From IMG/VR virus record IMGVR_UViG_3300045988_161200: a DNA stretch of 64,000 nt; one strand, written 5' to 3'. Below the pieces are notes generated by a model. It saw only the letters and a program-made list of their open reading frames with translations, made no database searches and was not told where the DNA came from. Position numbers and translations under genes: made by a program. Below are positions 14,285-47,588 of this stretch, piece by piece (position 1 is the first letter of the stretch; each line of letters opens with the position of its first letter). This DNA is from a virus.

Positions 14285-14512
14285 AATAATATCCTCCTAT
14301 AATTCTGAAATTTGAATTTTATTAAGCAATTTTTCCGCTCTGAATAAGCCCCGCATTATTTATTCCTTCATATTATTTCCTACTTTGAATTTTCCAACTT
14401 TGACAGTCTTATTCAGACTGTCAAACGCTCAGAGTTTAATGGACTGTTTATAGCTACTCAGACAGCTTAATCAAATCGTGATTTTATCCATACACTACTA
14501 CATTTAATTATA

Positions 14513-16750: not shown

Positions 16751-16946
16751 TGTGCAATATGTTTCATTATATAAGTCCTCCTATCAAATACACGTTTTAT
16801 TTTTTAGCTGTCTCCCACTATTGCGAGAGACTAACAGCTTACAGCCGTTTAACCGCGCTGTTATGCTTATTGTGCATACCTTACGGGGGAAAATCCCCCG
16901 TAAACGCTCAGAGCCTAAATGCCTTTTTATACACGCCCTGACGTGT

Positions 16947-25627: not shown

Positions 25628-26731
25628 ATGATAACAGCAAAAATTGGTAATAATACAATTAATTGTTATGACAGTAAGTATTCTAAGGAAGAATTGAAGA
25701 CTTGGGCAAGTAAAAATATAATCAAATGTCCAGTTTGTGGAAAAGATTATGAATACTGCCATGGTCAAATAAACACGCCGTATTTTAGACACAAGGATAA
25801 ATTTGAATGCGATTATTTATATTCTGAGCCTGAAACAGAAGAACATATTAAAGGTAAAATTGCTTTATATAACTGGATTAAGTCACAAGACGGAGTTAGT
25901 AACGCTGTATTAGAAGCGTGGATTCCTGAAACCAAACAAAGACCTGACGTTATGTTTGAATATGGTGGTCAAAAGTGGGTTATCGAATTTCAATGTAATC
26001 CTATTGCAACAGAACAAATAGAACGTCATAAACTGTATAAAGCCGCAGATATTAAAGATATCTGGATTTGTGGCAAAGAAAAATATGGCACTGGTAGAAA
26101 ACATATGGAAAAAATTATGAATGGTATGTTTGATTATGAAAATAATACTTTTACTGAAATTTATGACCTTTTACAATGCGATCTGCTTCCTTATGGATAT
26201 GTTAAAAATAGTTTTTTTCGTTCTGTAAAGCTTGAAAATATAACATTTAAGAATAGAATTGTATTTACAGATAACGCTATGGTTACATATGTTAGCGAAG
26301 ATATAGAATTACATAAAAAATATGAAGCAAGATTAAAAAGAGAAGAATATATTAACACTATATTTGATATTTGTAATACTATTCCAAAATGGTATAAAAA
26401 AGTACAACATAATTGTGTAATAACAGTAAAACGTGGTAGCTGGGATTCTCCGTATCTTGTAATGATAAATTTTTCAAGCGATATTACACAGCCATTTACT
26501 ATGTTTATCAAAGAAGATACTATTGACATTTGCATAACAGAAAAATATAATCGTAAGGTTAAACGTGAATCATCATATCGTAGGAATAGTTATTATTGGC
26601 AAAAATCTTCAAGGTTTATCAATGTTGATATTCTTAAATATAGTGATAATAATTTAATTTTAACAATAAAAAATTATTTCTCAGGAAAGCTTCATGAAGG
26701 AATAGCGATAAAATACAGTAAAAGGAGATAA
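25628..26731 (+). CDS. CoiA-like nuclease family protein
   Basis: CPVCGKDYEYCHGQINTPYFRHK...RPDVMFEYGGQKWVIEFQ. Confidence 0.65.
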   Translation: MITAKIGNNTINCYDSKYSKEELKTWASKNIIKCPVCGKDYEYCHGQINTPYFRHKDKFECDYLYSEPETEEHIKGKIALYNWIKSQDGVSNAVLEAWIPETKQRPDVMFEYGGQKWVIEFQCNPIATEQIERHKLYKAADIKDIWICGKEKYGTGRKHMEKIMNGMFDYENNTFTEIYDLLQCDLLPYGYVKNSFFRSVKLENITFKNRIVFTDNAMVTYVSEDIELHKKYEARLKREEYINTIFDICNTIPKWYKKVQHNCVITVKRGSWDSPYLVMINFSSDITQPFTMFIKEDTIDICITEKYNRKVKRESSYRRNSYYWQKSSRFINVDILKYSDNNLILTIKNYFSGKLHEGIAIKYSKRR

Positions 26732-26737
26732 TAACAC

Positions 26738-29533
26738 ATGAGACAGATATATACACTGAAATTTAAATCTTCGCTTCTGAAGGAATTTGGGTATAAAATT
26801 AATATGGAATTTGACGAAGCTAAAAAATTAAAATGTGTAATTGCGTTGGCTGATAGTCAGATGCTTCGTACAATAAGAGAAGTCCGTGGACAGATTATTG
26901 ATTTTGATAAGGTTGAAGAATCATATACAGAAAGAGAAATTTATGATAAAAAGCTTTCAAATTCAAAATCTCTTGGAAAAGATGACATTGAAAAGATTGT
27001 TACTAACAGAAACGAAGTGCAATCTGAAATAGACGATATGCTATATGTAAAAGATTATGTAACTATCGTTATGGAAAGCACAAAAGATTATGATTATATT
27101 TGTGAAAATGGCGTTGAAATAAACGGTAAGGTTTATCACAGGTTGAGTTGTTCTGCTGGACAAGCTCGTAAATCAACTATTGTGGTTTGTCCAGATGATA
27201 TTATTGATGAAGTAATTTACAGACTTGATAATGACAGAAATAAGAATATTCCTCTCGCTGCAAGTAAATATAATGCCTATTTTGGACTTAGCAGCTCTGC
27301 GACTCAGGTTGTAAGTGAACCAAAGTTTATTGTAGTTAAAGATTTTGAAAATGCCGATACCTTTGACGTACATTTTGTAACTGAGATAGCAGGAAACACC
27401 GATGATTTAGTAGAAGATAAGACCGTTACACAGACTTTTAACAGAACTGACGGAATGGGACTTATATCTCCAAGACAGGCTAAGAAATGGGCTGATGAGT
27501 TAGGATTAGATTATATACCCTCACAATTTGGATTAAGGCAAAGCTTTATAAAGGGTATGCTTTGTACGTTCCCCATTCACGAATTTTGTGAAGAAATAAA
27601 TGGTGGCAATTACATAGTAGATACGATTTACAAAGATGAAAACGGAAGTTATATAAAAGCTGATCTTCGAGATTACGACATTATTATTTCTGAATCGCAG
27701 TTTAAGCTTTGGAATTGTTATGATGGTGTTGATGATTACCTTGAAAAATGCCACAAAAATGGTTTGAAATGGGGTATTCCTCAGTATGCACCTAAAGAGT
27801 GTAAAAACATTCTAAAGATGAATTACCAGTTCTTACAGACTTTGAACTTGAATGAAACTGACATAAAGGAACTATGCAAGCCTTTTGTTGATTGGATAAC
27901 GGGTGTTTCATATGATAACTTTGAATATATGTTGCTGTTTTTGCTTGGAGTAAATAATACAGAAGAAAGCATAAGCAATTTCTTGAGAAGTAGTGATAAT
28001 TATTGGTTGAAGTCACTTGTGGTAAATCCCGATTTGAAGAATGATAAGTTTATTCGTACAAAAATAAGGGATTTGATAAAGAATAAAATAAAAAAGGGCT
28101 GCATGGGTGATATTTATGTTAAGGGTAATTTTCAGACTTTAGTATCTGACCCATATGCTTATATGCAACACGTTTGTGGCATTGAACCCACTGGATTGCT
28201 TGATAAAGATGAATTTTATTCAAACTATTGGAATGAGCGCAACGTAACACAGGTAGACGGTATGAGGTCTCCCCTCACTTTCAGATCGGAACACGTTGTT
28301 ATGAATTTAAAAAAGAATGTTGAAACCGAGAAATGGTACAGGTATTGTAAAACTGGTATCATAATAAATTGGTTTGGTCATACAGTGCAGAATTTCGGGG
28401 GTGCAGATTTTGACCTTGATATTTTAGCAACAACGTCTGATCCCACAATTATTAAGGGTGTTTACAGAAACGAATTGACAATGACGTATGATGCTCCAAA
28501 ACCTGAAAAGAAAATTTTTACAAAAGAAGATATTCAGAATGCCGACAAGTTTGGTTTTGGTTCAATTATTGGTCAAATAACAAATAAGAGTAGTAATGCT
28601 TACGCTTTACTTAAAGAAATTGAAGATAAATATGGCAAAGATAATGATATGTGGAGAATTACATATTCAAGGTTAATCCAGTGCTGTAAAGCACAAAGTT
28701 GTCAAATCGACAAAACCAAACTGGGGCGAGAAGTTAAGGGTATTCCAAAATTATGGGTTGAATATCGTAAAACTGATGATAAAACGGTTAAAAAGAATAA
28801 CTATACAACAGACGATATAGAAAAGATAAAGTTTTATAACAGTATTCTTCTTGACAAATATCCATATTTCTTTAGATACAGATACCCTGATTGTAAGAAG
28901 AAGTATGATAAATATGTTGATAGCAATGAAACGGCTTGCAAACAGCGTTTTGGCATTTCCTTAAAATCTTTAATTGATTTAAGTCAAAAGACCCCAGAAC
29001 AAATGACTTTCTTAGATAATTATTATAAGTATATGCCTGTTACAATGAGCGATAGTCCAATGAATTTGCTTTGTAAATACATAGAGGGTATTAACTTTGA
29101 AATTTCAAAAAAAATCAAAGAAGAAACATCAAGCGAGGGTCTTCCAACGTTAAAATATGATGTAGAATATAATAACTCTGAATATAATACTATATCAGAT
29201 ATTATAGATGAATGTTTGTTATTGTATAGAGAAGTACAATTTGAAAACGCTGAGAAGGATAAGGATAAACGAGAAATTTTTGATTTTTCAAAATACACCT
29301 CAGAAATCATGCTTGCAATAGGAAATGTTGAGAAAGCTTTAAATTGTGTGATTGACTATTTTTACATCAATAATCCTCAAAAGAGTAAAGATATTATGTG
29401 GGAAATGTTTGGTAGATACATTTACACGAGAATAAAAAAAGATATTTCTACTGTAATGTTTCCGATACCTGATAAAAACGGTGATATTACATATTTAGGT
29501 GAAAATTATTCTGTACAGGAGGTTGACATATGA
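26738..29533 (+). CDS. two-barrel (YonO/cellular RdRP-like) single-subunit RNA polymerase candidate
   Basis: PSQFGLRQSFIKGML, VDGMRSPLTFRSEHVV and GGADFDLD (D-F-D-L-D at 28406-28420) resemble RdRP/beta-prime motifs. Confidence 0.6.
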   Translation: MRQIYTLKFKSSLLKEFGYKINMEFDEAKKLKCVIALADSQMLRTIREVRGQIIDFDKVEESYTEREIYDKKLSNSKSLGKDDIEKIVTNRNEVQSEIDDMLYVKDYVTIVMESTKDYDYICENGVEINGKVYHRLSCSAGQARKSTIVVCPDDIIDEVIYRLDNDRNKNIPLAASKYNAYFGLSSSATQVVSEPKFIVVKDFENADTFDVHFVTEIAGNTDDLVEDKTVTQTFNRTDGMGLISPRQAKKWADELGLDYIPSQFGLRQSFIKGMLCTFPIHEFCEEINGGNYIVDTIYKDENGSYIKADLRDYDIIISESQFKLWNCYDGVDDYLEKCHKNGLKWGIPQYAPKECKNILKMNYQFLQTLNLNETDIKELCKPFVDWITGVSYDNFEYMLLFLLGVNNTEESISNFLRSSDNYWLKSLVVNPDLKNDKFIRTKIRDLIKNKIKKGCMGDIYVKGNFQTLVSDPYAYMQHVCGIEPTGLLDKDEFYSNYWNERNVTQVDGMRSPLTFRSEHVVMNLKKNVETEKWYRYCKTGIIINWFGHTVQNFGGADFDLDILATTSDPTIIKGVYRNELTMTYDAPKPEKKIFTKEDIQNADKFGFGSIIGQITNKSSNAYALLKEIEDKYGKDNDMWRITYSRLIQCCKAQSCQIDKTKLGREVKGIPKLWVEYRKTDDKTVKKNNYTTDDIEKIKFYNSILLDKYPYFFRYRYPDCKKKYDKYVDSNETACKQRFGISLKSLIDLSQKTPEQMTFLDNYYKYMPVTMSDSPMNLLCKYIEGINFEISKKIKEETSSEGLPTLKYDVEYNNSEYNTISDIIDECLLLYREVQFENAEKDKDKREIFDFSKYTSEIMLAIGNVEKALNCVIDYFYINNPQKSKDIMWEMFGRYIYTRIKKDISTVMFPIPDKNGDITYLGENYSVQEVDI

Positions 29534-30441
29534 ACGAGTTTAAATATAAAGATTTAGACTATGCTAAAAACATAATTGAACACGGATTTTCTAAAAAGTA
29601 TTTTAACACAGAAATTAAACTTGTAGCACTCTATCTTCGTGATGTTCTTGATATAGAAAAAAAGGAAGATAGAAAAAATGAGTTACATAATATTTGTGAG
29701 AAATATCTCAAAGATTATCATAGAATGAGATACTACAAGGTGGTTAATAAGGCGATAGATTATTCTACTTGTAAGAAAAATCAATTAATAACAATAGAAA
29801 GTGTTCCTGTTTTAAAGTGTGAGGTTAATTATTTCAATAGTGCAGAACTGACTCTTGATGAGAAGAAACTGTTGTTTACATTGCTTATAGTCTATAAACT
29901 TAATAAAAAATACTTTGAAATCAAGAAACCAGATGAACCTTATAATAACATTTATTTTAAAGGTGGAACATCAAGATATTCTGACCTGAAGAAAGTAAGT
30001 AATATTTCAAATAAGGTAGATATAAATATAGACCTTATTTCAAAACTTGCCAAGAGGGGTTATTTACAGCTTTATAGTCGTGGTTGTATTAGAATGAACT
30101 TTATGGAGCAGATTGATTATAATGGTGGTTCTGGCGAGGTTGCGTTTGAAATAATTAATTATAATAATATTGGATATTGGTTTGAATGGTATAACGGTAA
30201 TAAGAGGGTCGGTAGATGTAGTAAGTGTGGTAATGTGTTTTATAAAAAGGCTAACAACCAAATTTATTGCGATAAGTGTCAAGGATATGAGAAACAGAAT
30301 GTAAAAACCATTGTTTGCTGTGATTGTGGTAGGGAATTTGAAGTAGATGCAAGAATATCAAACAAAAAAAGATGTAGTTGCTGTCAAAAAATATATAGAA
30401 ATAATTATCAAAAAGAGCTTATGACTAAGAAAAGGCAGTAA
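29530..30441 (+). CDS. hypothetical protein with C-terminal multi-CxxC zinc ribbons
   Basis: 303 aa, translationally coupled to the polymerase-like gene. CSKCGN...CDKCQG...CCDCGR...CSCCQK. Confidence 0.65.
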   Translation: MNEFKYKDLDYAKNIIEHGFSKKYFNTEIKLVALYLRDVLDIEKKEDRKNELHNICEKYLKDYHRMRYYKVVNKAIDYSTCKKNQLITIESVPVLKCEVNYFNSAELTLDEKKLLFTLLIVYKLNKKYFEIKKPDEPYNNIYFKGGTSRYSDLKKVSNISNKVDINIDLISKLAKRGYLQLYSRGCIRMNFMEQIDYNGGSGEVAFEIINYNNIGYWFEWYNGNKRVGRCSKCGNVFYKKANNQIYCDKCQGYEKQNVKTIVCCDCGREFEVDARISNKKRCSCCQKIYRNNYQKELMTKKRQ

Positions 30442-30470
30442 TTGTTAGCAAGCGTTTTCAATTCAGAAAT

Positions 30471-30515
30471 CACCCACAAATGACGTATTTATGCGGTTTG
30501 TGGGTGTTTTTGATT
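30471..30515 (+). terminator. intrinsic terminator
   Basis: CACCCACAAA...TTTGTGGGTG followed by TTTTTGATTTT. Confidence 0.75.
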
Positions 30516-30620
30516 TTTATTACTATATGATAAGGTAAAATAGCAATAATAATCTATTTTATACTATATCACACAATAAGTCAAATGTAAATTGACAAAT
30601 TAAACAAAAATTTATTATGA

Positions 30621-30815
30621 ATGGTGGTTAAAAATTTGATCGCAATTTCAAAAGCTGAAGCACAGGAACTCAGAAAAATACTTCCTAATGTAGAAATCCA
30701 CAAGACCCTCAGAACTAAGTCAGGTCGTGGAAAGTATTATCTTGTTGAAGAAAAGAGAAATCTTATTGCTTTGGCGAAGCTCAGAAATACTGATGTAAGG
30801 TCAATTACTGAGTAA
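30621..30815 (+). CDS. hypothetical protein
   Basis: 64-aa ORF with no clear RBS. Confidence 0.4.
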   Translation: MVVKNLIAISKAEAQELRKILPNVEIHKTLRTKSGRGKYYLVEEKRNLIALAKLRNTDVRSITE

Positions 30816-30827
30816 CTAACTATCCCC

Positions 30828-30965
30828 TACTGTCCCAGAACCCTACCTACCATATCCACACGCCACTGTGGTTCATCTCCTTTTACAAACTCTTTTCATA
30901 AATATATACCTCCTAAAATATATTTCTATCTCCTTTTCTATGGTAGGCACGGTTGTGGGACAGTA
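30828..30965 (+). promoter_or_regulatory. long imperfect inverted repeat upstream of the late genes
   Basis: TACTGTCCCAGAACCCTACCTACCAT (30828-30853) pairs 23/26 with ATGGTAGGCACGGTTGTGGGACAGTA (30940-30965). Confidence 0.55.
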
Positions 30966-31040
30966 ACAAAAAATCAAATATCCTATGTAAAACATAGGGC
31001 TGTCGGGTGACAGTAACTTATTTTTAAGGAAAATTTTAAT

Positions 31041-31665: not shown

Positions 31666-32874
31666 ATGGGAAGAAGATTTCTTGATACTTGTTCCCTACT
31701 GGAATTAGTTAATTTATCTGATATAAATACAGCTGATATTTGCCTATCGAGTGTTACATTACAGGAGCTTGAAAATATTAAAACTTCCGCAAACAAGGAT
31801 AGTGAAACAAAATATCGGGCGAGAGTTGCTGTCCGAGCGTTAAAGGACAATCCCAATGTTGAGATAATAGTGGTCAATAGAGATGATTATCAATACCTTG
31901 AAGATAAAGAACTTGAAATTACAAATGATAATCTGATTATTGCTTCTGCTTATAGATATTCACAGGAACATAATATTACATTTTATACAGAAGATTTGCT
32001 TTGTGGATTTATTGCCAAGAATTACTTTGGGCTTGAAGTTCAGAGTGTTAAAACTGATGACAAGTCTGATATGTATAAGGGATATAAGGTAATTCACGGC
32101 AATACAGACGTTATTAATAAATATATGGATAACATAAATTTTGATGATTGGTCTGTTAATGAATATCTTATTATAGAAAATACAGATGATGACACATCAA
32201 AGGAAATGAGGTTTGACGGTGAAAAGTTTGTCAATCTCAAACTACCGCCTTCTAAGTTTATTAAAGGTAAAAATTCTTTACAGAGATGTGCTTTAGATAT
32301 TCTTATGAATCCCGAAATTACAGTGGCTGCTGTCTTGGGTGGATATGGAAGTGGCAAGACATTTCTTGCAATGCAGATGGCACTTTACAATGTACAGGAA
32401 AAAGGCAATCAATCCAAGATACTTGGTGTACGTGAAACACTTGGTGAAGGTCAAAGCATTGGTTATCTTCCAGGTACAAAGGATGAGAAGGTCGGTAATT
32501 TCTTCGCCCCGTTAGTACAAAGTCTTAACGGTGGAGAATTTGAACTTGAAAAGCTTAAAATGAGTGGTGTTCTTGAGGTTAATGTGCCTTATTATATGAA
32601 AGGTACTACATATAACAATACGGTTATAATTTGTGATGAAGCCGAGGATTTATCTGAAAGCCAGATTAGACTTATAGGCACAAGGCTTGGTGAAAACAGT
32701 AAAATTTATTTTGCTGGAGATTATAAGCAATCTATTGTGAATAAATCGCAGAACAACCCACTTGTGAAAATGTGTAATGAATTTAAAGGTAAACATAATT
32801 TTGCTTGTATATATCTTGGCGAAGATGTTAGAAGTGAAACAAGTAAGATGTTTGCTGAGTTATTTGAAATATAG
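31666..32874 (+). CDS. phoH: PIN-domain plus PhoH-like ATPase
   Basis: Walker A LGGYGSGKTFLA and Walker B VIICDEAEDL. The N-terminus is PIN-like. Confidence 0.8.
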   Translation: MGRRFLDTCSLLELVNLSDINTADICLSSVTLQELENIKTSANKDSETKYRARVAVRALKDNPNVEIIVVNRDDYQYLEDKELEITNDNLIIASAYRYSQEHNITFYTEDLLCGFIAKNYFGLEVQSVKTDDKSDMYKGYKVIHGNTDVINKYMDNINFDDWSVNEYLIIENTDDDTSKEMRFDGEKFVNLKLPPSKFIKGKNSLQRCALDILMNPEITVAAVLGGYGSGKTFLAMQMALYNVQEKGNQSKILGVRETLGEGQSIGYLPGTKDEKVGNFFAPLVQSLNGGEFELEKLKMSGVLEVNVPYYMKGTTYNNTVIICDEAEDLSESQIRLIGTRLGENSKIYFAGDYKQSIVNKSQNNPLVKMCNEFKGKHNFACIYLGEDVRSETSKMFAELFEI

Positions 32875-32887
32875 GAGATATGGATAA

Positions 32888-33088
32888 ATGGCAAAGATAA
32901 CAAAGAAATATAGTTTTAGTAAGGCTGAAATTTCATACGAAGACGGAAAATATACGATAACGGAAATTGGCAAGGACGATAGTACCGATTACGATTTATC
33001 TTCGGTACTTGACAGTTTTATTGGTCTTTCAGGTGTATCGCTTTCTATTGGAGTAGATGATGAAGTTCCTTCTGTCGAGGAAGCTTGA
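32888..33088 (+). CDS. hypothetical protein
   Basis: 66 aa with an AGGAGA RBS. Confidence 0.55.
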   Translation: MAKITKKYSFSKAEISYEDGKYTITEIGKDDSTDYDLSSVLDSFIGLSGVSLSIGVDDEVPSVEEA

Positions 33089-34266
33089 TTGGAGGACTTA
33101 ATATAAATTTTTCTACATACGAAGAGGAGCTTGAATACCTTGTAGACAAGGTGGATAATCCTCTGAACAATAAAACTTGGGTGGATATGGTTGATGAGTT
33201 AAACACTAATACTCACCCAGATGTACTTAGAAAATCATTTACTGGCGGTCGCTATGGTGGGTATGCTGTATATAAGTATTTCATCAATAAGATTGCCGAG
33301 GGTTGTTCTACTGAAGAACAGGAACGTCTTGAAATTTTAAGAAACGAAGTATATAAAGAACGTTGCAAAAATGCAGACATTCTCAGAGAAAAGAGAAAAA
33401 TTCTGCGTGATGAAGCAAGATTTGAAACACTTACAGACGTTCTCAAAGAAGAAATCAAGAATTTAAGACCTATTAAGTTGAATGATTTTAAGTCAAGCAC
33501 AAAATCAGAAAGAGTTTATGGTATTGCACAGTTTTCAGATTGGCACTATGGTAAGCTAATAGATAATCAGTGGAATTATTATGATTTAGATGTCGCCGTT
33601 GAACGTGCTAATATTATTGCAGATAAGATTATTGCTAAGAGCAAGAAACACGGTGTTACAGACCTCATTGTTGAAATAAACGGTGATATGTTGGACGGTA
33701 TTATAAATATATCGTCAAGAAATGTTGAAGAAGCTGATGTTATTACTCAGTTAGTAGGTATTTCTGAACTTCTTGCACAGGTTATAAGCAAACTTATCCC
33801 ATATTATGAGAATGTTAAGGTTGTCACCACATTAGGAAATCATGGACGGATATGGAGTGACAAGCGCAATTGTGCGACATCTGAAAATTTCGAGATGCTT
33901 ATTCCTGAATTTCTTAGACTTAGACTTGATAAGCGTGTAACTCTCATTACATCTCACGGTCTTGACTTCGCATCTTATGAAATTAATGGAGATCTGATTT
34001 GTGTCGCACACGGTCAGAATGATAAGCTTGCCACTGTAATTTCTGATTTTACAAATGTATATAAGAAACTTCCAAAGGAAATCCACCTTGGACATACACA
34101 TTCTTATAAGGATATAAACGATTGTGATGTGTTTGTTACTGTCAATGGTAATCTTTGTGGAAGTGATGATTACGCCGTTTCATTACGTAAGATAACAAAG
34201 CCAAGTCAGAACTTTATTGTTTATGACGGTTCTGATAGGTGTATTTATAGTCTGATGGCAGACTAA
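33085..34266 (+). CDS. calcineurin-like metallophosphoesterase
   Basis: FSDWHYG, NGDMLDG, LGNHGR and GHTH motifs. The start is ambiguous (TTG at 33085 or ATA at 33103 after GGAGGA). Confidence 0.75.
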   Translation: MIGGLNINFSTYEEELEYLVDKVDNPLNNKTWVDMVDELNTNTHPDVLRKSFTGGRYGGYAVYKYFINKIAEGCSTEEQERLEILRNEVYKERCKNADILREKRKILRDEARFETLTDVLKEEIKNLRPIKLNDFKSSTKSERVYGIAQFSDWHYGKLIDNQWNYYDLDVAVERANIIADKIIAKSKKHGVTDLIVEINGDMLDGIINISSRNVEEADVITQLVGISELLAQVISKLIPYYENVKVVTTLGNHGRIWSDKRNCATSENFEMLIPEFLRLRLDKRVTLITSHGLDFASYEINGDLICVAHGQNDKLATVISDFTNVYKKLPKEIHLGHTHSYKDINDCDVFVTVNGNLCGSDDYAVSLRKITKPSQNFIVYDGSDRCIYSLMAD

Positions 34267-34298
34267 AATTTATTGATATTGAAAGGAAATTAAAATAT

Positions 34299-34580
34299 AT
34301 GACAAAGGCTGAATTTATTACAAAGGTTAGAGAACACTCGGAGCTTTCTAAGGCACAGATTGATGAGGTGCTTACAGCAATTCTTGATACTATTGTTGAT
34401 AGTGTTGCAGCTGGCGAGAAGGTCAATTTCGTTGGCTTTGGTTCTTTTGAAAAGCACAAGAGAGCTGCGAGAACAGGTGTAAATCCCTCTACAGGAAAGC
34501 CTATTGAGATAGCAGAGAAGAATGTGCCTTCATTTAAGGCAGGCAAGATGTTTAAGGATACTGTCGCTGAAAGCAAGTAA
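34299..34580 (+). CDS. hup: HU/IHF-family DNA-binding protein
   Basis: MTKAEFITKV...VNFVGFGSFEKHKRAARTGVNPSTGKPIEI. Confidence 0.9.
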   Translation: MTKAEFITKVREHSELSKAQIDEVLTAILDTIVDSVAAGEKVNFVGFGSFEKHKRAARTGVNPSTGKPIEIAEKNVPSFKAGKMFKDTVAESK

Positions 34581-34995: not shown

Positions 34996-35033
34996 AAGAC
35001 GGTGGGTCGCAATAGTGGCTCACTGTCTTTTTA
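34996..35033 (+). terminator. intrinsic terminator
   Basis: AAGACGGTG...CACTGTCTT followed by TTTTAT. Confidence 0.7.
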
Positions 35034-35034
35034 T

Positions 35035-35104
35035 TGCGAGTTGGTCTAATGGTAGGATTAGGGTCTCATAAACCTTAGATTTACGTTCAAGTCGTAAGCT
35101 CGCC
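35035..35104 (+). tRNA. tRNA with CAU anticodon (Met, fMet or Ile2 type)
   Basis: Anticodon arm AGGGT-CTCATAA-ACCTT, T arm TTACG-TTCAAGT-CGTAA, acceptor GCGAGT/GCTCGC, GG in a short D loop. The ends are uncertain by 1 nt. Confidence 0.7.
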
Positions 35105-35109
35105 CCCAA

Positions 35110-36075
35110 ATTGGCAGTTCTCGATAATCTGCTGTTAGTAGCTCTGTCTGCGGACAACTGAGGTCAAAGTAGATATGCGTATCAAAATGGCTAAATCAAA
35201 TATGAAGTGAAACCAACACTCTTTAAATAAATGGTAAAAACGGAAAATATAAAACAATAATAAACTTGTTTGTAAGAAAGATGCTTGCATTTTCCCATTT
35301 TCACTACCGTTTGTGAAGTTTATTCGTCCAGTCGAGGGTGGAATGACGTTAAACTCTACCCTACCATAATGGTTCTGAGAAAATAATTATCAGAATTATG
35401 TTTGCAATAACCCCGATGAAAACGGTTGTCAACCTTTTGGGACATGATTATAATGAATGTTTATGGAACGATAGTTTTATAAGCAAGTCAACTTTGTATA
35501 TGAAAGTATGCAAGATGAGAGGGAAATCCTCAAATTTAGTTGTGGTGCTAAGAGTTATCGCTTCAAAATGCACAGAGCTTATCGCTGTGGTAATAGACGC
35601 TTCTGTGAAGAATAAGCCTTATACTAACGAGTGGTATCGCAAAGTCACTAAGGTAATCCAAATCAACACAGTCTGTTTTGATGCTTGAGAAATCAGGCTA
35701 TAAGGTAAGTCGCTGGTAAAAGTAGCCATATGACAGTATTGGGAACAAATCTTTTCTTTTTTGATGATTTTTTAAAAAAATTTCAAATGCTGAATGACTG
35801 GTGAAATTTGTGTATAACCAATTACACACAAGCTTTGAGAGAAATCTACGGTAAGAAGCTATGGGGTCGCTACCTATAGTTCAGCCTTATCGTCTTGGTG
35901 GCTGAAAATTGAAGAAGATAATGGAGGTACGGCGAAGGTCGTATTGCAGGCATAATTGTGGGAATTGTTTTTCTTACTGAAAACAAATAAAAATATCCCG
36001 TTCTGTGTTGGTGTACAAAACGAGATATATGATAAATGCTTGAGATAATCACGAATAAACAATACTGAAAGGATA
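35110..36075 (+). ncRNA. candidate large structured RNA (about 1 kb without credible ORFs)
   Basis: No ORF has an RBS. GC is visibly higher than in the flanks. There are many local helices, e.g. TTCTGA/TCAGAA at 35371, CACAG/CTGTG at 35571, CAGCC/GGCTG at 35882 and ATATCCCGTT/AACGAGATAT at 35992. It sits directly after a tRNA. Confidence 0.35.
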
Positions 36076-37260: not shown

Positions 37261-37653
37261 AAATATTTCATCCTTTCAATGTAATAAATCTTAAGTTTTT
37301 ATATCGTATAAAAATCGTGATTGTTTATATACAAGTTATTAGTAATTAAGTTATTTATAGCATATCACTTTTGTATAATAATTACAATAGTTTTCACAAA
37401 TTAGTAATGTAGAAAAATCTGCAGATAATTTATTGAGATATTACAAAATAGACATTTTTAGGTTTTTAAATATAGTTGTAGGGATTAAGCTGACAATTTT
37501 TAAGTCTTATAAATATATGTTTGTTTTAGGGTAATGGCTTAAAACAGATACTATAATAAAAAGATAAATTGGAATGATTAACCAGTCGAAAAAGTTTATT
37601 ACATTTACTGCTATTTAATACAATTAATTATAATCAGAGAGGAGATGTTAATA

Positions 37654-38640
37654 ATGGCTGAAATGAGTAAAAAGATTCGTGTTTATGATAAAAAGATACT
37701 CAGTGAAATAAATCCTGAAACAATAAAACTTTGGAATAAATATAAGATAGATATGTCTCTTAGAGAATTATCAGAAAAGACTATTGCTGGTTATAAAAAT
37801 GACTTAGAACATTGGTGGATTTATATTTATAAAAATCAAGGAAATCAGTCTGTTACTGAATTAACAGAAGATGATATTACTGAATTTCTTTATTTCTGTA
37901 AGACACAGGGCAATAATTCAAGACGTATGAAACGTAGAATGGCTTCCATTTCTGCATTTTATAAATATCTCCGTAAAAAGAAACTTATAGCTGAAAATCC
38001 CACTGAGTTTTTAGACAGACCTAAGAAAGATACAGATGTTATAACTCAGACATTTTTAACTCTTGAACAAGTTCAGCAGATGAGAGAAATTTTACAATCT
38101 TTAGTTGATAATGCTGAAACAAATAACAGAAAGCATAGAGCATTGCAGTATCAATGTTATGCTCTATTTTCTTTGTCTACAATGGCAAGAGTCAATGCCG
38201 TATGCAATACTCGTTGGGAACAGATTGATTTTAACGAAAGAACCGTAAATGATGTTCTTGAAAAAGAAGGTTATATTGTAACTTTGTATTTTTCTGAAGA
38301 AGTTAAAGGCTTACTTGAAAATCTTATGGCTTATCGCAAAGAAAACAACATTGATGATAATGGATATGTATTTGTTTCTTTTGTAGATGGTAAGTATGAT
38401 AAGACTGCAAACAGTACATTAACCGAATGGTGTCATACCATTGGTAAAATGTTTAGTGTTCCAACACTACATCCACATGATTATAGACACAGCGGGGCTA
38501 CGCTATATAAAAATGCTGGAATGTCTCTTGAAGATGTGTCAGCACTTCTTAATCATACAGGAACAGATGTTACAAGAAAATTTTATATTAGAGTTGATAA
38601 GAAAAAGATAAGTCAGAATAAAGATAGATTTGACTTCTGA
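37654..38640 (+). CDS. tyrosine recombinase/integrase (XerC/D-like)
   Basis: ARVNAVCNTRWEQIDF (R), HPHDYRHSGAT (HxxR) and LNHTGTDVTRKFY (H...Y). GAGAGGAG RBS. Confidence 0.85.
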   Translation: MAEMSKKIRVYDKKILSEINPETIKLWNKYKIDMSLRELSEKTIAGYKNDLEHWWIYIYKNQGNQSVTELTEDDITEFLYFCKTQGNNSRRMKRRMASISAFYKYLRKKKLIAENPTEFLDRPKKDTDVITQTFLTLEQVQQMREILQSLVDNAETNNRKHRALQYQCYALFSLSTMARVNAVCNTRWEQIDFNERTVNDVLEKEGYIVTLYFSEEVKGLLENLMAYRKENNIDDNGYVFVSFVDGKYDKTANSTLTEWCHTIGKMFSVPTLHPHDYRHSGATLYKNAGMSLEDVSALLNHTGTDVTRKFYIRVDKKKISQNKDRFDF

Positions 38641-38830
38641 TATAAAATAACATCGTCTCACAGCAGACACCTTAAAAGACATAGTGGTTTACCCACACAA
38701 TACAAAACAAAATGTCGGAATAGAGACTATAAACCTATTCCATTGTAGAAGGATACTACTAAAAACCGTAAAGGTTACTGCACCTAAAGCAGTTTTATAT
38801 AGGGGTTACGGAAACCGTCTAAAAACCGAG

Positions 38831-38866
38831 AAAGCACCATTCATCACAAAATGGTGCTTTTATTAT
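38831..38866 (+). terminator. intrinsic terminator
   Basis: AAAGCACCATT...AATGGTGCTTT followed by TATTAT. Confidence 0.65.
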
Positions 38867-39019
38867 GCCTTGATTTACCGTGTTAGGTGATAAAGGTATC
38901 CAACAATACAAAGACTTACAGAGTTGCAAACTGTAAGTTTGAGGGTAATATGACTCCACTACCCTCTTTTTTGTATTTATTTATAGATAAAGAAATGGAG
39001 TCGAGATTGGAGTCAAAAT

Positions 39020-39937
39020 ATGAGTAAGGTAAGAGATTTAACAGGTCAAAAATATAATAAACTAACTGTTATTAAAAGAACAGAATCAAGAATAACTAAA
39101 AGCGGTAATAAAATAACACAATGGTTGTGTCAATGTGATTGTGGCAATATGACTGTTGTTGATAGTAATAAAATAACAAGTGGTCGCACTAAATCTTGTG
39201 GCTGTGAAAAAAATAATATTGGTGACAAATTAAGAAAAGATTTAACTGGTAAAAAATTCGGAAAACTTACAGCTATTAAAATTAACAAAGTTGAAAATCA
39301 TATTACTTGGTGGGAGTGTAAGTGCGAGTGTGGTAATAATACTGTTGTACAAGCTTCACAACTGATATGTAGCAATACTAAATCTTGTGGTTGTTTATCT
39401 AAAGAAATCGCAAGCCAAACACATTTAAAAGACTTAACAGGTATGAAATTTAATATGCTTACAGTTTTATCAAGAGCTAAAAAACATGGAACTAAAACAA
39501 GATGGAAATGTGTTTGTGATTGTGGTAATGAATGTGTTTGTTATTCAGATGTTTTACTAAATGCAAATCAAATTTCATGTGGATGCTCTTCCTTATCAAA
39601 GGGAGAAATTCAGATTGAAAAATATTTAAATTTACATAATATTAAATATGAAAGGCAAAAGAAATTTGATGATTTACGAGGCATTGGTAACGGAAATTTA
39701 TCTTATGATTTTTATTTACCACAATATAATATGTTGTGTGAGTTTCAAGGTTTACAACATAGGCAAAAAACAGGTTATTTCGGTGGTGAAGAAAAATTTG
39801 TAAGGCAAATAGAACATGACCGCAGAAAAAGAGAATATGCTGAAAACAATGGTTATAAGTTGCTTGAAATTTGGTATCAAGATTATAAGAATATAGATAA
39901 AATACTTAATAATGAATTACAAAAGGAGGTGGTTTGA
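39020..39937 (+). CDS. free-standing homing-endonuclease-like protein (3 Zn-module repeats plus PD-(D/E)xK/Vsr-like nuclease)
   Basis: Three repeats of LTG.K(F/Y).KLT(V/A)...W.C.CDCGN...SCGC. C-terminus has LCEFQGLQH...DRRKREY...LLEIWY. Confidence 0.65.
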   Translation: MSKVRDLTGQKYNKLTVIKRTESRITKSGNKITQWLCQCDCGNMTVVDSNKITSGRTKSCGCEKNNIGDKLRKDLTGKKFGKLTAIKINKVENHITWWECKCECGNNTVVQASQLICSNTKSCGCLSKEIASQTHLKDLTGMKFNMLTVLSRAKKHGTKTRWKCVCDCGNECVCYSDVLLNANQISCGCSSLSKGEIQIEKYLNLHNIKYERQKKFDDLRGIGNGNLSYDFYLPQYNMLCEFQGLQHRQKTGYFGGEEKFVRQIEHDRRKREYAENNGYKLLEIWYQDYKNIDKILNNELQKEVV

Positions 39938-41019
39938 TGCCACAAAAGAAACGTGCCAAACCGCCTGTTGGTAAAAAAGTTTGTATTGAATGTGGAAAAG
40001 AAAAAAATCTTTCTTGCTTCTATACAACAACAAATCCTATGGTATCAAATGATGGTAAGACAGTAAATATATGCAAAACGTGTGTAAAAAATGGTTCATA
40101 TAATCCAGATGGTTCATTAAATGTTGAACTGTTTAAACAGAAATTAATGTTAATGGATAAACCGTATGTATCAACAGCATTAGAATCTGCTATTAAAGAA
40201 GTAAACAAGTCTTTAGAGCTTGGCAAGGGTAGAACCGATGTTATTGGCTGTTATTTTAAAAATGTTTCCACCCTTCCTCAATATTCAAAACTATCATTTC
40301 TTGAATCCTTGAATCTCGAAAAGCAAGGGAAAGATATTAGGGATGCTGTTACAACTACTGAAAAAAGGAGCAGAACAAGTAACGAGGTATATGTAAGACA
40401 AATTGATGATTTTGTTGTTACTGACGAAATGCTTGACCTTTTCGGAGAGGGGTACACAAAAGCCGAATATAGGTTAATGACTAAAAAGTTTGAGAAGCTG
40501 AAGCAAACCTATATTATTCAGACCAATCTTCACGAGGAAGCACTGGCTACCTATGTAAGATTCAAAGTTAAAGAAGAACAGGCTACGGCACAAGGGGACG
40601 TAGGAGGTGCCGAGAAGTGGAACAAAGCTGCACAGGAAGCAGCAGATAAAGCAAAGTTATCTCCTAAACAATTAACAAAAAGTGATTTACAAGGTGGTCT
40701 GAATAGTTTTTCTGAGTTACTTATGGCTGTTGAACAAGCTGTTGATGTTATTCCTATTTTGCCATCTTTTAAATTCAGACCTAATGATGCAATAGATTTT
40801 AACATCTGGTGTATGATAAATTATCTTCGTGACCTTGAAGGTAAACCATTGTGTGAATATGAAGATGTTTATAAATTTTATGATGAACGTAAAAAGGCAT
40901 ATGTTGAACAGTATGGCGATCCTTATGGGATATTTACAAAGGATACAACTGAGGATAATCGTGAAGCAATAAAAAGATTTATAAAATTGCCAAAGGATTA
41001 TGGTGATGACGATGAATAA
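39937..41019 (+). CDS. putative terminase small subunit, by position
   Basis: Immediately upstream of and overlapping terL. N-terminal CIECG...CKTC zinc ribbon. Confidence 0.45.
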   Translation: MPQKKRAKPPVGKKVCIECGKEKNLSCFYTTTNPMVSNDGKTVNICKTCVKNGSYNPDGSLNVELFKQKLMLMDKPYVSTALESAIKEVNKSLELGKGRTDVIGCYFKNVSTLPQYSKLSFLESLNLEKQGKDIRDAVTTTEKRSRTSNEVYVRQIDDFVVTDEMLDLFGEGYTKAEYRLMTKKFEKLKQTYIIQTNLHEEALATYVRFKVKEEQATAQGDVGGAEKWNKAAQEAADKAKLSPKQLTKSDLQGGLNSFSELLMAVEQAVDVIPILPSFKFRPNDAIDFNIWCMINYLRDLEGKPLCEYEDVYKFYDERKKAYVEQYGDPYGIFTKDTTEDNREAIKRFIKLPKDYGDDDE

Positions 41020-42691
41020 GAGTAAAAATGATATTGATAATGCTCCCAAACTTAATGTTTCACCTATTGAGAAAAATCTTGATAAATGGATAGAGTTTTC
41101 AAGTTGGATGATTTGGTATCCAGATTTATTTTTAGATTTGCTGCGTCCTAAAGAGGGCGGTATTACGTTGCACCCAGATCAAAGAATATTTCTAAGATGT
41201 GCTACAAGATTTTTTTCTATTTATGGTTGTTTTCCTCGTGGCTGGGGCAAGACTTGGGATGAGGTAGCTTCCTTATTTATAATTGCAATTAGATACCCTA
41301 ATATTGAATTATCATTAACGGCTCAAACAAAAGATAACGCTGCTGAATTGTTAAAAGATAAAGCTCAAGAACTGCTCCGACAATACCCTTTGCTTAATAA
41401 TGAAATTTCAGGGAAAGTAAAATTTCAAAAGGGAGATGCAGAAATAAATTTTAAAAACGGTGCTAAAATTGATGTTCTTGCAAATTCACAAAATAGTAAA
41501 GGTCAAAGAAGAAAACGCATTAATATAGAAGAATCAGCATTATTAAATGCAGAATTGTTTGACGATGCTTTAAAACCTATTGTTGAGGTATCACGATATA
41601 CTTGTGGCAAATTAGCATTGATAAACCCAGAAGAACTTAATCAGCAAATTCATTATTTTACCACTCCCGGATGGAGAGGTTCTGATGAGTATAATAGAAA
41701 TATTCAGATGATAAGGAATATGATAAATCTTAAAGGCGAAATGGTTTTAGGTGCTGATTGGCGTTTAGGTAGTTGGTATGGAAGAGGTTCTTCAAAAAGT
41801 CAAATACTTGAAAAAAAGAAAACTATGTCACCTACTGCTTTTGCACAGAACTATGGTGGAAAATGGACTGGTAGTAGCGATAGTGCTTTAATTAACGTAA
41901 ATAGATTTTTAAACTCCAGAGTTCTTACCAAAGCTGAATTAAAAACATCTAATTTTTCTGATGAATATTACATTGGTGTCGATGTTGCACGTTCTCAAAA
42001 TTCAAATAACAATCAATCATCTGTTTGCGTAGGAAAAGTTATTCGAGATACTGATACAAACAAAATACTATCTGTTGATATAGTTAATGTTATGAATGTA
42101 TCTAATACTATTAATTTTACAGGACAAGCAATTATTATAAAAAAACTGAAAGAGGCTTATAACGCACGAGCTGTTGTAGTCGATGGCAATGGACTTGGTG
42201 CAGGTTTAGTTGATGAAATGCTAAAAACGAATATAGACCCAAACACGCAGAAGAAATATCCTTGTTGGGATACTATAAATACTGATAATAAACCTGAAAC
42301 TAATAATGCTGAAAAATGTGTCTATGATTTAAAAGCACAATCGGCGCAGACTCGTATTATAACAAATTTTATAGATATGATTGATGCAGGTAAGATACGA
42401 TTACTTGAAAAGAGAAATATTACGTCTAACTATGATAACCTTGAAAGTGATGTATTGCCGTTTGTTCAAACAGATTTACTTTTTGAAGAAGTCAATAATC
42501 TAAAAATTAAATATTTACCAAGCGGAGCATTAACAGTTGAAAAAGTTGTAAATAAATTAAACAAAGACCGATATTCAGCACTTGTTTATCTATTATGGTT
42601 TATTATGGAATTTTATAATAAGCCAAAAGAAAAAAGCATTTTTACTCTTAACATATCTTCCCTCTCACGCCGACCAACAATAGCTCATTAA
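41000..42691 (+). CDS. terL: terminase large subunit
   Basis: GCFPRGWGKTW Walker A-like motif, a C-terminal nuclease-like region (GVDVARSQ) and position before the portal gene. The start may be 41012. Confidence 0.8.
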   Translation: MVMTMNKSKNDIDNAPKLNVSPIEKNLDKWIEFSSWMIWYPDLFLDLLRPKEGGITLHPDQRIFLRCATRFFSIYGCFPRGWGKTWDEVASLFIIAIRYPNIELSLTAQTKDNAAELLKDKAQELLRQYPLLNNEISGKVKFQKGDAEINFKNGAKIDVLANSQNSKGQRRKRINIEESALLNAELFDDALKPIVEVSRYTCGKLALINPEELNQQIHYFTTPGWRGSDEYNRNIQMIRNMINLKGEMVLGADWRLGSWYGRGSSKSQILEKKKTMSPTAFAQNYGGKWTGSSDSALINVNRFLNSRVLTKAELKTSNFSDEYYIGVDVARSQNSNNNQSSVCVGKVIRDTDTNKILSVDIVNVMNVSNTINFTGQAIIIKKLKEAYNARAVVVDGNGLGAGLVDEMLKTNIDPNTQKKYPCWDTINTDNKPETNNAEKCVYDLKAQSAQTRIITNFIDMIDAGKIRLLEKRNITSNYDNLESDVLPFVQTDLLFEEVNNLKIKYLPSGALTVEKVVNKLNKDRYSALVYLLWFIMEFYNKPKEKSIFTLNISSLSRRPTIAH

Positions 42692-47503: not shown

Positions 47504-47588
47504 TTGATTTAGGATAAATATAAGTGAGGCAGATGGGTTTATCCTGTCTGCCTTGCTAATTTATTTTGAAAGGTGATAAATAGCTAAT

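Follow-up and report, generated by a model that had tools for sequence, protein, structure and literature searches.

Among the known relatives of cellular RNA polymerases, YonO-type enzymes are the smallest, and they serve as a model for the ancestral polymerase. YonO itself, from phage SPbeta, is a processive, strictly DNA-dependent RNA polymerase with an essential Asp triad, and is required for 37 SPbeta late genes; its promoter and its need for a factor were left open at the time (Forrest et al. 2017, PMC5467207). Here we describe a relative of YonO, 931 amino acids long, and the 303-amino-acid zinc-ribbon protein encoded directly downstream, both found in IMG/VR virus record IMGVR_UViG_3300045988_161200. 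The whole stretch analysed, 64,000 nucleotides, is hereafter called the window; it has a GC content of about 32% and belongs to an SPbeta-like temperate phage, or prophage, of a low-GC Firmicute, and megablast detected no near-identical phage among GenBank phages. The zinc-ribbon protein accompanies polymerases of this family almost without exception, has yet to be named, and may be the helper factor that they have been lacking.

Results

The Polymerase Gene and Its Active Site

The polymerase is encoded by an intact open reading frame (ORF), with the following features.

26722-26727, + strand: ribosome-binding site AAGGAG, 10 nt 5' of the polymerase ATG
26738-29533, + strand: predicted YonO-family two-barrel RNA polymerase, 931 amino acids (Pfam RdRP, PF05183; phrog_8308)
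27443-27562, + strand: first (beta-like) barrel active-site block, from RTDGMG (D238) to PSQFGLRQSFIKGML (R267, K272), from invariant alignment columns
28250-28300, + strand: second (beta-prime-like) barrel motif QVDGMRSPLTFRSEHVV, with R510 and P512 aligned to QDE-1 R962 and P964
28391-28426, + strand: catalytic metal-binding motif NFGGADFDLDIL with the triad D557/D559/D561, from the alignment

An earlier sequence-only reading of this DNA had singled out three motif segments and proposed a phage two-barrel RNA polymerase. An ORF and codon check finds the segments where it placed them: PSQFGLRQSFIKGML at residues 261-275 (27518-27562), QVDGMRSPLTFRSEHVV at residues 505-521 and NFGGADFDLDIL at residues 552-563, with D557-F-D559-L-D561 encoded by gat ttt gac ctt gat at 28406-28420. 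Eight residues of QDE-1 (D709, R738, K743, R962, P964, D1007, D1009, and D1011) are invariant in all two-barrel polymerases (PMC2919709), and all eight have their counterpart in the window polymerase (D238, R267, K272, R510, P512, D557, D559, and D561), where they are also invariant across an alignment of 50 homologues. D238, R267, and K272 match QDE-1 D709, R738, and K743 with spacings of 29 and 5 in both proteins; R510 and P512 are separated by 2 as in QDE-1, and P512 and D557 by 45 versus 43. The first-barrel block also aligns with YonO TDGCG...VRLPWVKGLL and with RDR2 SDGIG...IRYGGYKG. The fourth position of the metal motif is Leu in the window polymerase and L, F, Y, or M in most of the window-type subfamily, whereas YonO, QDE-1, and cellular RNA polymerases have Gly. 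Many assemblies contain homologues sharing 93-99% identity with the window polymerase, and such homologues are also frequent in metagenomic viral contigs of 70-130 kb.

Database searches place the protein in a known family. Pfam RdRP is matched at 46.2 bits (cutoff 23.8, E 3.7e-12) over residues 116-680 and model positions 56-559 of 582, and the same precomputed match is found on the homologues; PHROGs assigns it to phrog_8308, labelled "unknown function". By tblastn, its best relative among GenBank phages comes from Spbetavirus BUCT082, a protein without annotation that matches at 46% identity over the full length, followed by proteins of Clostridium phage c-st, of Enterocloster phages, and by SPbeta YonO (26% identity over residues 121-616, E 3e-20). 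Pairwise BLASTP with YonO covers the same residues (E 2e-26) and puts the three motifs on YonO VRLPWVKGLL, LRSPHLFREH, and FDNDGD. Taken with the Pfam match and the invariance across the 50 sequences, this puts the motifs far beyond chance. Finally, hhalign of these 50 window-type sequences against five YonO-type sequences gave 100% probability (E 4.6e-48, 667 columns) over query residues 107-913, so that homology to YonO takes in the C-terminal helical half.

The AlphaFold2 model built from the 50-sequence alignment has a predicted local distance difference test score (pLDDT) of 89 and a predicted template modelling score of 0.84. Its best Foldseek matches in the PDB are RDR2 and QDE-1 (E 2e-16 to 3e-13, probability 1.0), with weaker ones to P32 gp64 (E 8.6e-7) and to gp66 of phi14:2, a crAss-like phage (E 2.9e-4), both at probability 1.0; it is from these matches of the model that we take the geometry of two double-psi beta-barrels in one chain. 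The sequence-only reading had likened the protein both to cellular RNA-dependent RNA polymerases (RdRPs) and to beta-prime. The former likeness stands, extended to phage single-chain RNA polymerases, whereas that to beta-prime/Rpb1 is marginal (E about 0.1, TM below 0.1). A direct sequence search against the PDB returned no matches, and a profile search yielded marginal RDR2 matches alone (E 0.026). Neither a primase nor a helicase fold, named at the outset as outcomes that would speak against a polymerase, was assigned.

Sequence (Pfam, BLASTP), profile (hhalign), predicted fold, and synteny (see below) thus agree in supporting the view that the 931-amino-acid protein is a genuine relative of YonO, and that it is a two-barrel RNA polymerase of a phage, akin to YonO and QDE-1. 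Taken alone, the polymerase is an unremarkable addition to a known family, since a routine Pfam scan could have identified it.

A Zinc-Ribbon Partner Encoded Next to the Polymerase

The gene directly downstream shows the following organization.

29518-29533, + strand: translational coupling, with ribosome-binding site AGGAGG at 29518-29523 and an ATGA overlap between the polymerase TGA (29531-29533) and the partner ATG (29530-29532)
29530-30441, + strand: ORF of the 303-amino-acid partner protein, with the domains below
Residues 1 to ~222, + strand: N-terminal part, helical/alpha-beta, unannotated (AlphaFold2 model)
30217-30279, + strand: zinc ribbon 1, CxxC pairs C230/C233 and C247/C250
30316-30384, + strand: zinc ribbon 2, CxxC pairs C263/C266 and C282/C285
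Residues 286-303, + strand: basic C-terminal helix (sequence and model)

The AGGAGG sits inside the 3' end of the polymerase gene; together with the stop/start overlap it bears out the proposed coupling to a protein with four CxxC pairs. We examined 122 loci, comprising 113 fetched from viral and genome collections, four metagenome loci, and five annotated phage loci. The synteny scans for the partner covered 118 of them, 117 of which contain the polymerase C-terminus. With a narrow profile, a partner homologue lies directly downstream on the same strand in 102 of these 117 loci. A broader profile also picks up the proteins encoded downstream in c-st (E 1e-31), in Enterocloster phage PMBT24 (E 5e-15), in L072, and in L113, which brings the count to 109 loci, in 59 clusters at 80% polymerase identity. 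The 4-nt overlap seen in the window is the commonest arrangement (37 of 102), and most other pairs overlap or abut. Other downstream neighbours are far less constant (HU in 68 of 115 loci, exonuclease in 56, PhoH in 38), the partner being the only near-universal neighbour of the polymerase.

The distribution of zinc ribbons is complementary. None of the 102 partnered polymerases carries a C-terminal CxxC...CxxC, and in the window polymerase no cysteine follows the segment that aligns with YonO 777-795; the idea that its last 25 residues may be a zinc-ribbon remnant that has lost its cysteines was considered. All five complete unpartnered polymerases, namely YonO, that of Psychrobacillus phage Perkons, and L115, L116, and L118 (two Sporolactobacillus loci and one Oceanobacillus locus), end in a zinc ribbon and a basic tail of their own. 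In its common natural form, the YonO-type family is a two-gene module that includes an unannotated zinc-ribbon protein, and YonO is a fused minority form; neither point appears to have been described in the literature searched. The description of the enzyme as single-subunit is probably incomplete, as the partner is conserved with the polymerase in nearly every relative and replaces a domain that YonO has in cis.

The ribbons themselves also resemble each other. By hhalign, partner zinc ribbon 1 (residues 223-250) falls on YonO 792-819 (probability 78.7%, E 1.7e-5) as the sole match. Pairwise BLAST connects the BUCT082 partner to Perkons (E 2e-5) and c-st CST177, labelled "YonO-homolog (C-ter only)" by the c-st depositors, to YonO (E 3e-5). 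Homology between the partner and YonO ribbons is likely but not proven, because the similarity is short and such modules are generic. The complementary distribution of fused ribbon and separate partner is a stronger argument for a functional link than ribbon similarity.

The remainder of the partner is distinctive. Its N-terminal ~220 residues are confidently modelled (pLDDT 87.7), and its profile collects 947 cluster representatives at 50% identity, nearly all of 250-330 amino acids and without annotation. It belongs to no family in Pfam, PHROGs, or NCBIfam. Searches with 119 diverse members gave generic zinc-ribbon matches and nothing else; profile matches in the PDB are likewise generic zinc fingers. 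Foldseek of the model found nothing significant in the PDB (best E 0.6 or worse), the small non-significant matches including winged-helix-like ones (the MCM8 WH and the MotA N-terminal domain). In BFVD it found family members alone, under misleading automatic names. We rejected the partner as a known initiation factor (sigma, TFIIB, TFE, or MotA-like), there being no significant sequence or fold match.

Partners of unusual form occur in a clade whose polymerases are ~40% identical to that of the window and have acidic C-terminal tails. The partner is fragmentary in the viral contigs L070, L073, L082, and L084 (the last three of about 215 kb), as zinc-ribbon proteins of 81-139 amino acids or as two ORFs, a few hundred bp downstream; in L084 it is split into two ORFs of 203 and 122 amino acids. 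In the same clade, L072 has an intact 357-amino-acid partner and L078 a 230-amino-acid protein with two zinc ribbons.

Replacement of yonO in BUCT082

A comparison of BUCT082 with SPbeta bears on the function of the pair. The DNA of the two phages is 82% identical upstream of the yonP-yonN slot, 71% in yonP, and 75% in yonN, and reaches 94% over 1.5 kb of the yonN-yonK intergenic region. The slot itself is dissimilar: SPbeta has yonO, whereas BUCT082 has a CoiA-like gene, a window-type polymerase, and its partner. Polymerase and partner therefore travel as one cassette that fills the functional slot of YonO, with the late-promoter surroundings otherwise near-identical, and this replacement is the best available evidence that a window-type pair does YonO's job.

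By the description of Forrest et al. (2017, PMC5467207), the YonO start site, published as position 2225998 of B. subtilis 168, falls in the yonN-yonK region. This region holds the DUF3800-VIII RNA motif (RF03075), ~260-320 nt upstream of yonK, which is plausibly the "unannotated non-coding RNA" that heads the YonO-dependent late operon of these authors. The motif is found in SPbeta (L002, 10018-10083), in BUCT082 (L001, 8632-8697), and in L077 (13652-13717). In c-st, a RAGATH-18 motif (L003, 10941-11001) lies directly upstream of the HU gene.

Transcription Signals around the Operon

The candidate signals are the following.

26523-26551, + strand: TTGACA-17-TATAAT, a sigma-70/sigmaA-type promoter match (12/12 consensus)
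30463-30520, + strand: intrinsic-terminator-like hairpin and T run closing the operon (from folding; kept in close relatives)
30815-31040, + strand: structured C-rich intergenic leader before the ClpP-like gene (dG -60.9 kcal/mol, z -5.5)

The promoter match, ~190 nt upstream of the polymerase start and within the 3' end of a CoiA-like gene, is a candidate host RNA polymerase promoter for the polymerase-partner operon. At the other end, the terminator recognized in the sequence-only reading is indeed strong: paired from 30463 to 30513, with a GC-rich core at ~30471-30506, the hairpin folds at -24.5 kcal/mol (z = -6.0 versus shuffles) and precedes a T run. The automatic terminator scan missed it because its apical part exceeds the 8-nt loop limit. 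The idea of a terminator-laden tape-measure gene finds no support here: a simple scan found no site in this gene (54370-56514), and the 9 terminator-like sites in 40-59 kb, versus 7.5 expected, are no excess.

Close relatives retain the leader, one compensatory C-G to T-A change being seen among them, and the 3' two-hairpin part of the leader gives a sub-threshold RAGATH-30 match (23.9 bits versus 59.5). L011 keeps just the 5' half of the leader and has a different gene next. Our guess is that this leader is the most plausible start region of a polymerase-dependent transcription unit.

Candidate promoter elements were sought by k-mer enrichment, comparing intergenic DNA downstream and upstream of the module across the 59 locus clusters. 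The top enriched k-mers proved to be ribosome-binding-site contexts or YonK coding sequence. Similarly, TCATCTCCTTT, common to the window leader and the SPbeta/BUCT082 leader, was rejected, its sharing being probably due to chance because it is equally frequent on the opposite strand. The palindrome CTGTCGGGTGACAG was rejected as well, as it occurs once.

Genomic Surroundings

Other features of the window are as follows.

57-543, - strand: three tRNA genes, left window end
14393-14467, - strand: Pistol self-cleaving ribozyme, 45.9 bits (gathering threshold 34.5), early region
16874-16946, - strand: Pistol self-cleaving ribozyme, 66.2 bits (gathering threshold 34.5), early region
25628-26731, + strand: CoiA-like nuclease gene (PF06054, E 1e-26), inserted between methylase and polymerase
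30621-30815, + strand: 64-amino-acid ORF downstream of the partner, conserved in 12 related loci
31666-32874, + strand: PhoH-like ATPase with N-terminal PIN domain, 402 amino acids (family match)
32888-33088, + strand: YonK-like protein (phrog_8651, family match)
33085-34266, + strand: YonJ-like exonuclease (annotation)
34299-34579, + strand: YonN/HU-like DNA-binding protein, 44% identical to YonN
35035-35105: tRNA, after the strong terminator at 34996-35029
35388-35960, + strand: full-length ROOL RNA (Rfam RF03087, 317.5 bits)
37645-39937, + strand: tyrosine integrase (phrog_1) and HNH endonuclease, between the polymerase block and the terminase
41000-42691: terminase, beyond the integrase region

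Whether the 64-amino-acid ORF belongs to the polymerase-partner module is uncertain: it has no family match, and small proteins that occupy this place in remoter loci show weak similarity to it. After it and the leader come a ClpP-like protease, the PIN-PhoH protein, and an SPbeta-like block of YonK-, YonJ-, and YonN/HU-like genes (32888-34579), then a strong terminator, the tRNA, the ROOL RNA, the integrase, the HNH nuclease, the terminase, the portal, and tail genes. Given the placement of the integrase, the attachment site may come to lie between the structural genes and the polymerase module and so separate the two in a prophage. The arrangement of HU gene, terminator, tRNA, and ROOL RNA is also found in the 99%-identical relative L013 (16557-17137). 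In the 93%-identity relatives L119-L122, PhoH is a 233-amino-acid protein without PIN.

Mobile DNA may have left traces around and within the polymerase gene. The CoiA-like gene is not present in L119-L122. In 14 scattered loci, BUCT082 among them, it immediately precedes the polymerase with a median gap of 7 nt; it looks like a mobile, homing-type element targeting the 5' flank of the polymerase gene. In addition, the polymerase gene is interrupted by 370-1,400 bp in c-st (L003, 4977-8086), L053, L066, L076, L079, and L084, and interruption sites recur at profile positions ~557 (exactly at DxDxD), ~613, and ~657. Such a pattern is suggestive of introns, inteins, or mobile insertions within the catalytic core; no group I or group II intron was detected by Rfam scans of the relatives with a split polymerase.

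Discussion

A Proposed Late Transcriptase with a Partner

We consider it probable, at roughly 70%, that the window encodes a YonO-family polymerase of an SPbeta-like phage acting with its partner as a late transcriptase. This proposal builds on family membership, fold, intact active site, coupling, terminator, and conserved partnership, all obtained by computation. Host RNA polymerase would transcribe the polymerase gene from sigmaA-type promoters such as that at 26523-26551, the partner would be translated off the same mRNA through the ATGA coupling, and the operon would stop at the terminator at 30463-30520. In the polymerase, one barrel contributes D238, R267, and K272, and the other R510, P512, and the Mg2+-binding triad D557/D559/D561. 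To judge from homology and from the gene-slot replacement, polymerase and partner may form the phage's own rifampicin-insensitive, DNA-dependent transcriptase. This enzyme would read the late block downstream of the operon, that is the YonK-, YonJ-, and YonN-like genes and then the structural genes; the late genes from 31041 onward are its presumed targets by analogy with SPbeta, as the sequence-only reading had suggested.

The partner would provide in trans the zinc ribbon and basic tail that YonO has in cis, and would add a ~220-residue domain without counterpart in YonO. It may associate physically with the polymerase via the zinc ribbon, its role being most likely nucleic-acid or promoter engagement, or clamp-like stabilization of the polymerase. 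Because the N-terminal domain matches nothing significantly, any such role is a guess.

Several observations weigh against this proposal. Purified YonO elongates without any factor (PMC5467207), so that the partner is not intrinsically needed for catalysis in the two-barrel fold. Neither fold nor family searches give the N-terminal domain of the partner a significant match, and the likeness of its ribbon to that of YonO amounts to 27 columns at 78.7% probability, zinc ribbons being generic; narrow and broad hidden Markov models of the partner both miss YonO. RNA templates are also used by the enzymes whose solved structures are closest, and the choice between DNA and RNA cannot be read from sequence. 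The metal motif has Leu instead of Gly at its fourth position, and crAss gp66, with Ile there, was crystallized in a state unable to bind Mg2+. As for the targets, strong intrinsic terminators lie in the presumed late region (34996-35029 and 47523-47557). No promoter used by the polymerase was found in the window, a search of direct repeats over 18-64 kb giving no convincing repeated motif, and no motif is enriched downstream of the partner across the 59 locus clusters.

Alternative Explanations

A more specific version of the proposal is that the partner is a dedicated second subunit, a promoter-recognition or initiation factor made of a novel ~220-residue, possibly winged-helix-like domain and a docking ribbon. 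We hold this version tentatively, as a possibility that falls short of being probable. If true, "single-peptide" YonO would be a derived, fused exception in a normally two-component family, and the 2017 question of how YonO-type enzymes find promoters would be answered.

It is somewhat less likely that the polymerase is the whole enzyme, like YonO, and that the partner is an independent DNA-binding regulator, for example a late-gene activator or a repressor of host transcription, which happens to share the operon. YonO does work alone in elongation assays, zinc ribbons are common in phage regulators, and the partner weakly and non-significantly resembles winged-helix domains (MCM8 WH and the MotA N-terminal domain). 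However, a mere operon neighbour fits poorly with a near-universal and tightly coupled adjacency across 59 diverged clusters, with the complementary distribution of fused ribbon and separate partner, and with the joint transfer of partner and polymerase, apart from the SPbeta backbone, in BUCT082.

We regard as improbable an enzyme other than a late-gene transcriptase, which would make replication primers or R-loops on single-stranded DNA, or perform RNA-templated synthesis as a true RdRP. The best fold matches of the polymerase are RdRPs that also transcribe single-stranded DNA, and its gene has neighbours that act in DNA metabolism (methylase, CoiA-like nuclease, PhoH, exonuclease, and HU). 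Homologues are labelled "RNA-dependent RNA polymerase" in several databases, but this label just mirrors the Pfam name, while YonO, the one characterized family member, strongly prefers DNA templates and is required specifically for late genes; the slot replacement in BUCT082 further argues for functional equivalence with YonO. Finally, that the gene is a decaying or selfish remnant without current function is very hard to credit: despite the split into two or three ORFs in c-st, L053, L066, L076, and L084 and the mobile-looking CoiA-like nuclease gene inserted just upstream, the window ORF is intact, its ribosome-binding site and coupling are kept, homologues of 93-99% identity occur in many contigs, and all catalytic residues are invariant in the 50-sequence alignment.

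The replacement in BUCT082 raises a puzzle, namely how two polymerases only about 25% identical could use nearly the same promoter region. A near-identical late-promoter region combined with different polymerase modules in BUCT082 and SPbeta makes the factor question directly testable. Beyond this locus, thousands of phage genes now called "hypothetical" or "RNA-dependent RNA polymerase", together with their partners, could be renamed.

Comparison with Known Systems

Compared with multisubunit RNA polymerases, the window enzyme shares the double-psi beta-barrel active-site residues of beta and beta-prime (the Asp triad, R..P, and the R/K pair), but both barrels lie in one chain and the metal motif reads GADFDLD instead of NADFDGD. 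No sigma, flap, or other accessory domains were detected on it. On the motif, the single chain, and the marginal Foldseek score, we rejected its assignment to multisubunit beta-prime.

Among single-chain phage enzymes, phi14:2 gp66 (PDB 6VR4) is a virion-packaged protein of 2,180 residues that transcribes early genes, host RNA polymerase transcribing the middle and late ones. The idea that members of this fold transcribe late genes is thus correct for YonO and incorrect for the crAss-like polymerases, which had also been cited. The window polymerase has the same single-chain two-barrel fold and a DFDxD motif in which the fourth residue is again bulky and aliphatic (Leu, against Ile in gp66). 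It is much smaller, at 931 amino acids, and is encoded in an SPbeta-like regulatory/DNA-metabolism block with no sign of virion packaging. A gp66-type virion polymerase was rejected on size, gene location, and a weaker fold match (E 2.9e-4) than to QDE-1. P23-45 gp64 and P32 gp64 (PDB 8F72) are non-virion enzymes, likewise small single-chain two-barrel phage RNA polymerases, made after infection. The P23-45 authors propose that gp64 initiates at GC-rich motifs upstream of early genes, and the passages concerned mention no partner protein. Similarity of the window polymerase to P32 gp64 is far weaker than to QDE-1 or YonO, and the host group is another one, P23-45 being a Thermus phage.

QDE-1 of Neurospora and RDR2 of plants are the best structural matches, with 770-970 aligned columns, the same Pfam family, and the same eight invariant residues. 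They differ by low identity (12-14%) and a TM-score of 0.37-0.48, and they are eukaryotic silencing enzymes using RNA or single-stranded DNA templates, whereas the window polymerase is a phage gene in a late-transcription context. We know of no zinc-ribbon partner for either.

YonO is likewise among the closest described systems. Homology is nearly full length, the active-site residues and the kind of phage are the same, and the HU/YonN-, YonK-, and YonJ-like neighbours recur in the window in a somewhat different order. Identity is 26%, however, the two proteins differ in length (931 versus 839 amino acids), and the metal motif is DFDLD in the window versus DNDGD in YonO. YonO carries a fused C-terminal zinc ribbon, where the window has a separate, coupled 303-amino-acid protein with an extra N-terminal domain. 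Because its ribbons sit on this separate coupled protein, we regard the window system as a two-gene variant and not as a YonO orthologue.

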